Origin: a virus
Taxonomy: Duplodnaviria; Caudoviricetes
IMG/VR virus record: IMGVR_UViG_3300035208_002804
Location: 72,275-136,274 of that record
Direction: 5' to 3' (one strand)
Length of the DNA: 64,000 bases
In this document: positions 47,967 through 48,623 of the stretch, piece after piece
Position numbering within the stretch: the stretch's first letter is position 1
How the letters are laid out: the number at the start of each line of letters is the position of its first letter
Made by a program: the position numbers and the translations under genes
Notes under the pieces: model-generated
Seen by the model: the letters and a program-made list of their open reading frames with translations, nothing else
Told to the model about the DNA's origin: nothing
Database searches by the model: none

Positions 47967-48623
47967 CTAATGTCAACGTAACACGAATAACAAATTTACA
48001 TCGATATAAGAACAAATAGACCAATTATATAGATAATTTTGTTACGTTTTAATTAGCACGTGATTTCAAACATGTATGGGGGTCTACCATTTATAGACGT
48101 TCTAATAAGAGTGATCTATATACTTATCAACCCCACTCTGAACCCACTTTGCTTCCCATTTCGTTGTTATATTTCTTCTCTAATCGCAACGTAACACAAC
48201 CAATCAATTATATCCACTTCCAGACAAATCCAAGCATTTTAAAAGATAATTTTGTGACGTTCTGATTAGGGTGAGGTTTACAACATATGTGGGGTATCGG
48301 TCTCAAATTACCAAATAGACCACAAATTATTGATATTTACGATCACTCATTTTACAACAATTCACTAATAATCTATCATGATTAATCATTAACAATTATT
48401 AATAATGTATAGTCAATTCACCTATCATACCAATAATCTATTATATCCACATACTACCTTTAGAATAGAAAACAGACAATAGATTACCCTTCATCTTCCT
48501 CACCACTATCTTTCCTAATGGCAACGTAACATAAATCTCTATTCTCCTTACGTTTCAGGCAATTCCACTCAATTTAAACAAGATAAATGTTACGTTGTGA
48601 TTAGAGCGAACCCCTGAACATGT
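47967..48623. repeat. Three modules of 17-bp inverted arms around a 56-bp spacer (putative origin)
   Basis: Left arms at 47967, 48180, 48515; right arms at 48040, 48253, 48588. Confidence 0.9.

Follow-up and report, generated by a model that had tools for sequence, protein, structure and literature searches.

In other archaeal viruses, the TATA/BRE cores of early genes have been documented to lie within conserved virus-specific sequences to which virus-specific regulators bind (PMC11065993). In control of the SIRV2 Aca8 type and of the SMV2 inverted-repeat type, a host-type TATA promoter is embedded in a virus-specific conserved sequence that recurs at several promoters, a virus-encoded regulator is presumed, and the motifs are lineage-specific (PMC11065993; reviewed in PMC5569661). 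In these crenarchaeal rod- or spindle-shaped viruses the conserved sequence sits right at the promoter core.

A second point of comparison comes from bacterial repression loops. The gal operators OE and OI form such a loop, flanking the promoter at integral helical turns. In the lac O1-O3 loops, likewise, the operators lie on one face of the DNA and bracket the promoter, and their exact spacing matters (PMC3592455).

The locus described here lies in a 64,000-nucleotide window of viral DNA, the last 64 kb of a record of 136,274 bp that is rated 95% complete, and consists of three tandem modules in which two inverted 17-bp sites, or arms, enclose a 56-bp spacer. Our favored reading, which we hold tentatively, is that the modules are three operator-promoter-operator cassettes whose arms would be bound on one face of the DNA. 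As in SIRV2 and SMV2, a TATA promoter of host type would lie within a virus-specific sequence that recurs at several putative promoters, the regulator is presumed to be virus-encoded, and the motifs appear to be lineage-specific. The arrangement differs in that two inverted arms stand 73 bp apart, centre to centre, rather than at the core itself; in that the cassettes are set in tandem in one intergenic region and not clearly ahead of protein genes; and in that the virus is a large tailed one with methanogen-style promoters. With lac the proposed cassettes would share operators that lie on one DNA face around a promoter at a spacing that matters; unlike lac and gal they are archaeal, each site is asymmetric and faces its partner in inverted orientation, any loop would span just 73 bp, and no LacI/GalR-type protein is present. 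Most likely the cassettes represent virus-specific promoter control of a known sort, and not a new kind of system.

Viral genome and promoter usage

A large terminase and tail proteins are encoded in the genome, which is that of a tailed virus; it also has genes for a RuvB-like ATPase and for a family B polymerase that contains an intein. Pfam and PHROG scans of about 40 ORFs neighbouring the locus indicated that nearly all are ORFans. In 13 virus genes a TTTAWATA 8-mer begins 29-38 nt (mostly 31-35 nt) 5' of the ATG with no Shine-Dalgarno sequence; other virus genes, those within operons, are preceded by GGAGG or GGTGA. Judged by this arrangement, the 13 genes would give rise to leaderless transcripts. 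A leaderless transcript that starts 23-27 nt after a TATA box is the archaeal pattern, so the promoters of this virus are to be read as TATA promoters, of the archaeal leaderless type. A bacterial promoter reading, in which a Bacteroidota-like -7 box falls within the conserved 9-mer of the modules, was considered and dropped, since leaderless TATA promoters indicate an archaeal host.

Several other features of the genome were observed. The family B DNA polymerase gene, outside the window at 27779-31264 of the full record (G000; 7779-11264 of L026), is split by an intein with a LAGLIDADG domain. Within the window, 21677-22810 is a single plus-strand ORF amid minus-strand structural genes; its product, probably a homing endonuclease, contains several helix-turn-helix motifs and gives a weak LAGLIDADG-like match, and a homologue stands at another position in the related genome G001. 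GC skew is very strong and strand-specific, reaching +0.47 at 34000-38000 and -0.56 at 40000-44000, and it tracks gene orientation; the coding strands of these two early-type blocks are G-rich and C-poor to an unusual degree.

Geometry and constraint of the modules

The modules occupy a 1.3-kb gap between a leftward gene for a 317-aa zinc protein and a rightward gene for an 86-aa protein (Table 1). Each is 90 bp in total, with a left copy of the site on the plus strand, the 56-bp spacer, and a right copy on the minus strand. The 17-bp site, which is asymmetric and bipartite, consists of CTAAT, three free base pairs (N3), and AACGTAACA. All three left arms have 0 mismatches; the right arms of modules 1, 2 and 3 have 1, 2 and 0, among them variable positions and one T>G in module 2, where TGTG stands in place of TGTT. 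The AACAT that follows 12 bp beyond the right arm in 3/3 modules belongs to a short palindrome, ACATGT or, in module 2, ACATATGT. An earlier, sequence-only reading of this DNA had described the three modules, their inverted arms, 56-bp spacers and AACAT, with coordinates that all proved exact; the variable stretch within the arm, which it gave as 2 bp, is really 3 bp. It had also called the spacers AT-rich, which is true of module 1 (GC 0.21) but not of modules 2 and 3 (0.29 and 0.30, versus 0.30-0.32 in the 1-kb surroundings).

Table 1. Positions of the modules and of neighbouring features in the 64,000-nucleotide window.
Feature	Position	Strand	Remarks
Module 1	47967-48056	+	Left arm 47967-47983, spacer 47984-48039, right arm 48040-48056
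TATA-like 8-mer, module 1	48024-48031
Conserved 9-mer, module 1	48031-48039
Module 2	48180-48269	+	Left arm 48180-48196, spacer 48197-48252, right arm 48253-48269
A/T-only 8-mer, module 2	48237-48244
Module 3	48515-48604	+	Left arm 48515-48531, spacer 48532-48587, right arm 48588-48604
TATA-like 8-mer, module 3	48572-48579
AACAT	48069-48073, 48282-48286, 48617-48621	+	12 bp beyond the right arm
Decayed extra right-arm-like site	48093-48109	+	Downstream of module 1; 77% identical to the module 2 right-arm region
Fourth, degenerate module	36757-36846	+	3 mismatches per arm, 56-bp spacing, inside ORF 36683-37036
317-aa zinc protein	46904-47857	-	Leftward neighbour; two tandem Cys4 zinc ribbons, cysteines invariant
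86-aa protein	49166-49426	+	Predicted winged-helix-like topology; close strains only
Leftward TATA promoter and highly conserved non-coding transcript (predicted)	48795-49016	-	8-mer from 49016 down to 49009
Single-copy 18-bp element	48377-48394		Between modules 2 and 3; contains 12-bp palindrome ATGATTAATCAT

With up to 3 mismatches allowed, the window contains 13 matches to the arm pattern where 3.2 are expected, and 0/100 shuffles gave as many; over all 136 kb of the genome, the core pair was found at modules 1-3 only. Among spacings of 30 to 100 bp, pairs of left and right arms (up to 3 mismatches each) occur at 56 bp alone, four times; by chance, about 5e-4 pairs per window would be expected at a given fixed spacing. 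The fourth of these pairs, which the sequence-only reading had not listed, is a degenerate module within a coding region; the ORF in question, whose product is an acidic protein of 117 aa, falls in a block where GC skew is extreme (+0.47). Since the CTAAT and GTAAC sub-sites are about 1 helical turn apart within an arm, and the arm centres, at 73 bp, about 7 turns apart, all of the sub-sites lie on one face of the DNA, pointing to a protein that recognises the duplex. The module is a real and strongly constrained element of unusual geometry.

Three contigs from other samples provided close strains, covering the whole region (L036), module 3 (L035) and module 1 (L044). Counted against the window as reference, variable sites in these strains amounted to 0/84 specified arm positions, 1/18 N3 positions, 10/168 spacer positions, 1/36 positions of the 12-bp linker and 0/15 positions of AACAT. 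In module 1, L036 and L044 show seven variable spacer sites and one change in the right-arm N3, and none at the specified arm positions; module 2 falls in a stretch (48161-48298) that is identical in L036; and module 3 falls in one (48477-48673) that is 100% identical in L035, where the flanks differ, and has three spacer substitutions in L036. The strains have no indels inside modules, the spacers changing by substitution alone, and the inter-module stretches 48116-48160, 48396-48475 and 48692-48790 have indels of 33, about 10 and 36 bp along with many substitutions. Spacing is fixed within the module and free between modules. The conserved blocks reach 60-126 nt to the right of every right arm, and 19-38 nt to the left of the left arms of modules 2 and 3.

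The arms thus vary less than either the spacers or the inter-module DNA, as is to be expected of an operator-flanked promoter, and these comparisons indicate that selection acts on the arms and on the length of the spacer, not on its sequence. The invariant length noted in the sequence-only reading is truly constrained, and 56 bp is also the spacing at the fourth pair and in the relative L037, described below. In repression loops function depends on exact spacing, which would explain an invariant length with free sequence.

Because the sites are clustered and repeated, with a fourth, decayed copy elsewhere and within a gene, some other role at the level of DNA was also considered, whether as a centromere-like partition site, as a packaging recognition site, or as relics of a miniature inverted-repeat element. 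It seems highly improbable. The copies have no target-site duplications, they share flanking homology, a single orientation and a clustered placement, and their arms are far better kept than their interiors, unlike decaying relics; the terminase genes are 17 kb off, and no partition ATPase was seen.

A more distant sequence, the Logan contig L037, encodes a zinc protein about 71-75% identical to that of the window, and about 105 nt upstream of this gene it has the same left arm followed by exactly 56 bp, after which a right arm begins as the contig ends. The left flank and left arm align with module 1 in the forward direction, but the spacer matches that of module 1 only as its reverse complement, with 32/56 identities versus 18/56 forward; 9 of 100,000 permutations gave as good a match (p ~9e-5). 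The free triplet of the left arm in L037 resembles the left-arm triplet of the window, meaning that N3 stayed with the flank, which places the exchange inside the 9-bp core. By this alignment the interior of L037 was inverted by exchange within the 9-bp cores, with the 56-bp length surviving.

Such a history would fit an invertible promoter switch, in which the arms are recombination sites and a recombinase flips the 56-bp promoter segment to redirect transcription, and to this extent the recombination sites named as an alternative in the sequence-only reading find some support. The exchange inside the core and the exact length kept despite the inversion both suit such a switch, and the modules share with bacterial invertons a promoter-like element placed off-centre between inverted repeats and the occurrence of both orientations among related genomes (PMC11602134). 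Unlike bacterial invertons, the modules have no detectable recombinase, as the genome has no match to PF00239 (serine) or PF00589 (tyrosine) at E <= 0.1 and the zinc protein resembles none of these enzymes. The two orientations occur between lineages, L037 versus the window, and only one was found within the species sampled, where it is the same in 4/4 sequences (window, L035, L036 and L044). One inversion over evolutionary time can come from ordinary recombination between short inverted repeats. A 56-bp interior is also far below usual inverton sizes. Most invertons are shorter than 300 bases, and ordinary promoters with inverted repeats have been distinguished from invertible ones (PMC11602134). 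We consider an invertible switch, for which the inversion in L037 is the sole positive evidence, rather improbable. Its boldest form, in which the modules would be invertible promoter switches smaller than any known and without precedent in an archaeal virus, with an unrecognised recombinase, perhaps the zinc-ribbon ORFan whose gene always adjoins them, flipping early transcription toward or away from the zinc gene, is less probable still.

The inverted interior also bears on a proposal that the modules are small-RNA genes, in which a 17-bp stem would close a 56-nt variable cargo of a guide-like or decoy kind. The arms are able to pair, the cargo differs among modules, and the whole of module 3 folds better than shuffles (z = -2.6); modules 1 and 2, however, do no better than shuffles (z = -0.9 each), the 56-nt interiors are unstructured, and the module fold signal is due to the arm stem alone. 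In such a stem the N3 triplets would be internal mismatches; since they are not complementary and the T>G of module 2 is uncompensated, the arms point to DNA-protein recognition and not to an RNA stem. No Rfam or tRNA match was found, and searches of the spacers against the virus, the relative G001 and 50,697 phage records gave no match, counter to the guide array that had been suggested. The spacers are also stable between strains, with no turnover, and inversion of the interior would alter the RNA completely, yet the architecture was retained. Taken with these results, a small-RNA function seems scarcely credible.

Putative promoter elements, candidate binders and relatives

An A/T-only 8-mer ends 8 bp before the right arm in 3/3 modules. 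Scored by a matrix derived from TATA boxes of this virus, its core is in the top 0.15% in modules 1 and 3 and in the top 2-3% in module 2, and with the full promoter matrix the module 3 site has rank 129 among about 272,000 positions. The minus-strand promoter reading scores slightly higher in the case of module 1, so the direction of the promoter is not fixed by the scores. The loosely conserved AGATAA pointed out in the sequence-only reading is real and forms part of a composite consisting of the A/T-only 8-mer, (A)GATAATTT, and the right arm. This composite of TATA-like box (8-mer AWTTWWAW), GATAATTT and arm is kept in L037 and is the part that can still be recognised there.

GTAAC-type sites are associated with TATA boxes elsewhere in the region. 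A GGTAAC box lies 4 nt after the TATA of the leftward genes for the 317-aa protein and for a 102-aa protein (46500-46808), and it is also found in L033, L034, L036 and L037; its presence here and in relatives makes GTAAC-type sites at TATA boxes a theme of the region. Read as TAGTTAC(C/G), the box was observed in nine copies, all on the plus strand, within the 4 kb of 45943-49851, versus 23 copies genome-wide on both strands; the leftward genes have it after their TATA on the minus strand. The short ORFs that follow the modules (40, 32 and 9 aa) are open in the strains and are not conserved as proteins, and the predicted transcripts flanking the modules on both strands fold about as well as shuffles (z -1.0 to +1.1).

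Two other elements of the gap are conserved in distant relatives. The predicted leftward transcript at the right of the gap would start from a strong TATA promoter with matrix rank 20 and converge on module 3. The 18-bp element between modules 2 and 3 is identical in L040 and L043, which have it in the same intergenic slot, and L035 has a symmetric two-base change that preserves its palindrome. Also observed were a 54-aa hydrophobic ORF on the minus strand (48650-48814), which overlaps four TAGTATAGT-type repeats, is open in L035, has a 36-bp indel (a multiple of three) in L036 and is absent in L034; and, well to the left, an ORF-free divergent intergenic region at 38450-38880 where the palindrome GTGATATCAC recurs in about 14 copies alongside a GGTGATGTCA variant, an array that might serve as operator field or as origin.

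The two genes that border the gap encode the candidate binders. The structure model of the 317-aa protein is confident at residues 140-235 only, the double zinc-ribbon core, and the protein has no Pfam, PHROG or PDB match. The 86-aa protein has a predicted topology of helix-helix-helix-strand-strand (model pLDDT 51), and its weak structural neighbours are all winged-helix domains, which serve as low-confidence leads. Fold searches with both structure predictions gave no significant match, and the Atlas neighbours are leads only. The sequence-only reading had suggested that the zinc protein perhaps binds the arms, but nothing ties the arms specifically to it. Because the arms are lineage-specific, they would more likely be read by the lineage-specific 86-aa protein, which we infer to be the first candidate for the arm binder, with the zinc protein second; the conserved zinc protein more likely reads something that is itself conserved, for example the element at 48377-48394.

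The zinc-protein family is tiny, with 9 proteins among 1.8 billion representatives, and wherever DNA was available the slot upstream of the gene is a long ORF-free region with repeats. Three tandem units precede the zinc-protein gene in L043 (1-1100; periods 162 and 164 bp) and are likewise present in L041 (1850-3003) and L042, both with periods of 200 and 204 bp, in each case with motifs unrelated to the arms. GTAAC/GTTAC cores are 6-11x enriched in L034, L040, L039 and L037, at other spacings. The leftward promoter and non-coding RNA of 48795-49016 are retained in L034 and L041, and 48795-48990 is about 90% identical in L034, though the zinc protein there is only 38% identical; one other contig, with a zinc protein 50% identical, has 844 bp of upstream DNA. 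From these comparisons, a three-unit control region beside the zinc-protein gene is a conserved design with lineage-specific sites. Among the sources of the relatives are the anaerobic samples JGI 3300037067 and 3300010352, SRR26638146 and ERZ1305919.

Beyond these contigs, a scan of IMG/VR for the core pair at spacings of 54-58 bp gave 10 matches, none with CTAAT ends and none related, some of which bear unrelated arrays of a similar 7-mer. Searches of IMG/VR with the 317-aa and 86-aa proteins found no close relatives, and a neighbour assigned to phrog_4334, tried as a route to relatives, led to unrelated phages alone. The broadly syntenic genome G001 (143 kb, terminase 49% identical) has neither the arms nor the conserved non-coding RNA, and carries a different 15-bp tandem array instead of the arms. 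The conserved RNA and the palindrome, used as scan queries, recovered one extra strain and nothing else.

These relatives are of interest for a replication origin, in which the arms would be polar initiator sites facing each other across a melted segment and the three units a compound origin. Three tandem units with lineage-specific motifs beside the zinc-protein gene look as if iterons and initiator had co-evolved; asymmetric sites, inverted and at a strictly fixed distance, suit an initiator; a flip of the interior, as in L037, would do no harm; and the locus is at both a gene-orientation switch and a local minimum of cumulative GC/AT skew (47.7-49.7 kb). In archaeal origins, AT-rich unwinding elements have on either side origin recognition boxes (ORBs), bound by Orc1/Cdc6 and variable in number, orientation and spacing, and such origins resemble this locus in having polar inverted sites around a short segment, beside a conserved gene at a point of divergence (PMC5333045).

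Against this, the 136-kb genome has no match to PF00493 (MCM), PF09079 (Cdc6_C) or PF09250 (Prim-Pol), although host factors are possible, and so the virus, unlike archaeal origins, offers no Orc1/Cdc6 or MCM; in modules 2 and 3 the spacer is at background GC, and the unit is triplicated, three separate melting segments being unusual. The skew minimum, proposed as a check in the sequence-only reading, does fall at the locus, but it coincides with the gene-orientation switch, and skew tracks gene orientation genome-wide, so it contributes nothing independent. Other repeat arrays, such as that at 38450-38880, are equally good candidates, and an origin would leave the conserved TATA-like box beside one arm unexplained. 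Of the earlier proposal of an ORB-like origin with initiator-type sites and head-to-head MCM loading, what endures is that the arms appear to act as protein-binding sites under selection; the ORB-like origin and the MCM loading found no support in the tests made here. We judge an origin to be unlikely, yet a live rival to the cassettes. The control region of SV40 has a double role as an origin, and by analogy the module region may double as one; it would be no surprise if one region combined promoter and origin.

Proposed mechanism and significance of the control region

The locus is the main divergent control region of the virus, and under the operator-promoter-operator reading its three tandem cassettes would form an early or regulatory hub situated between the blocks of leftward and rightward genes. 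Two inverted 17-bp sites with centres 73 bp apart bracket a 56-bp segment that holds a TATA-like box and a conserved 9-mer adjoining one arm. Most likely a virus-encoded, sequence-specific protein, as an oligomer or cooperatively, would occupy both arms at once and loop or wrap the short segment between them, and occupancy of the arms would control assembly of host TBP, TFB and RNA polymerase on the enclosed promoter, whether by repression or by activation. If transcription is rightward, its start would lie at the right arm's outer end, and the arm by the TATA box would cover about -14 to +3. This interval is the classic site for an archaeal repressor.

Several observations count against the cassettes. 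Module 2 has a weak TATA-like box, a loop of 73 bp is tight and would require bending, a degenerate fourth module within a coding region is odd for a promoter cassette, and, as noted above, the ORFs after the modules are unconserved as proteins and the predicted transcripts unstructured.

To our knowledge, almost nothing is known about gene control in tailed viruses of methanogen-type archaea. The locus provides a clean and testable cis-element, a 17-bp bipartite site in a strict 7-turn geometry with two ORFan candidate binders adjoining, and this geometry outlives both turnover of the sequence and inversion of the interior. If the arms are bridged over 73 bp around a TATA box, the cassettes would be a compact archaeal form of loop- or wrap-based promoter control and a ready-made orthogonal switch for archaeal genetics; if instead the modules are an origin or an inverton, they would define a new initiator or recombinase family. 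Under every reading, the relatives show that a three-unit control region by the zinc-ribbon gene is a conserved design whose motifs are lineage-specific.
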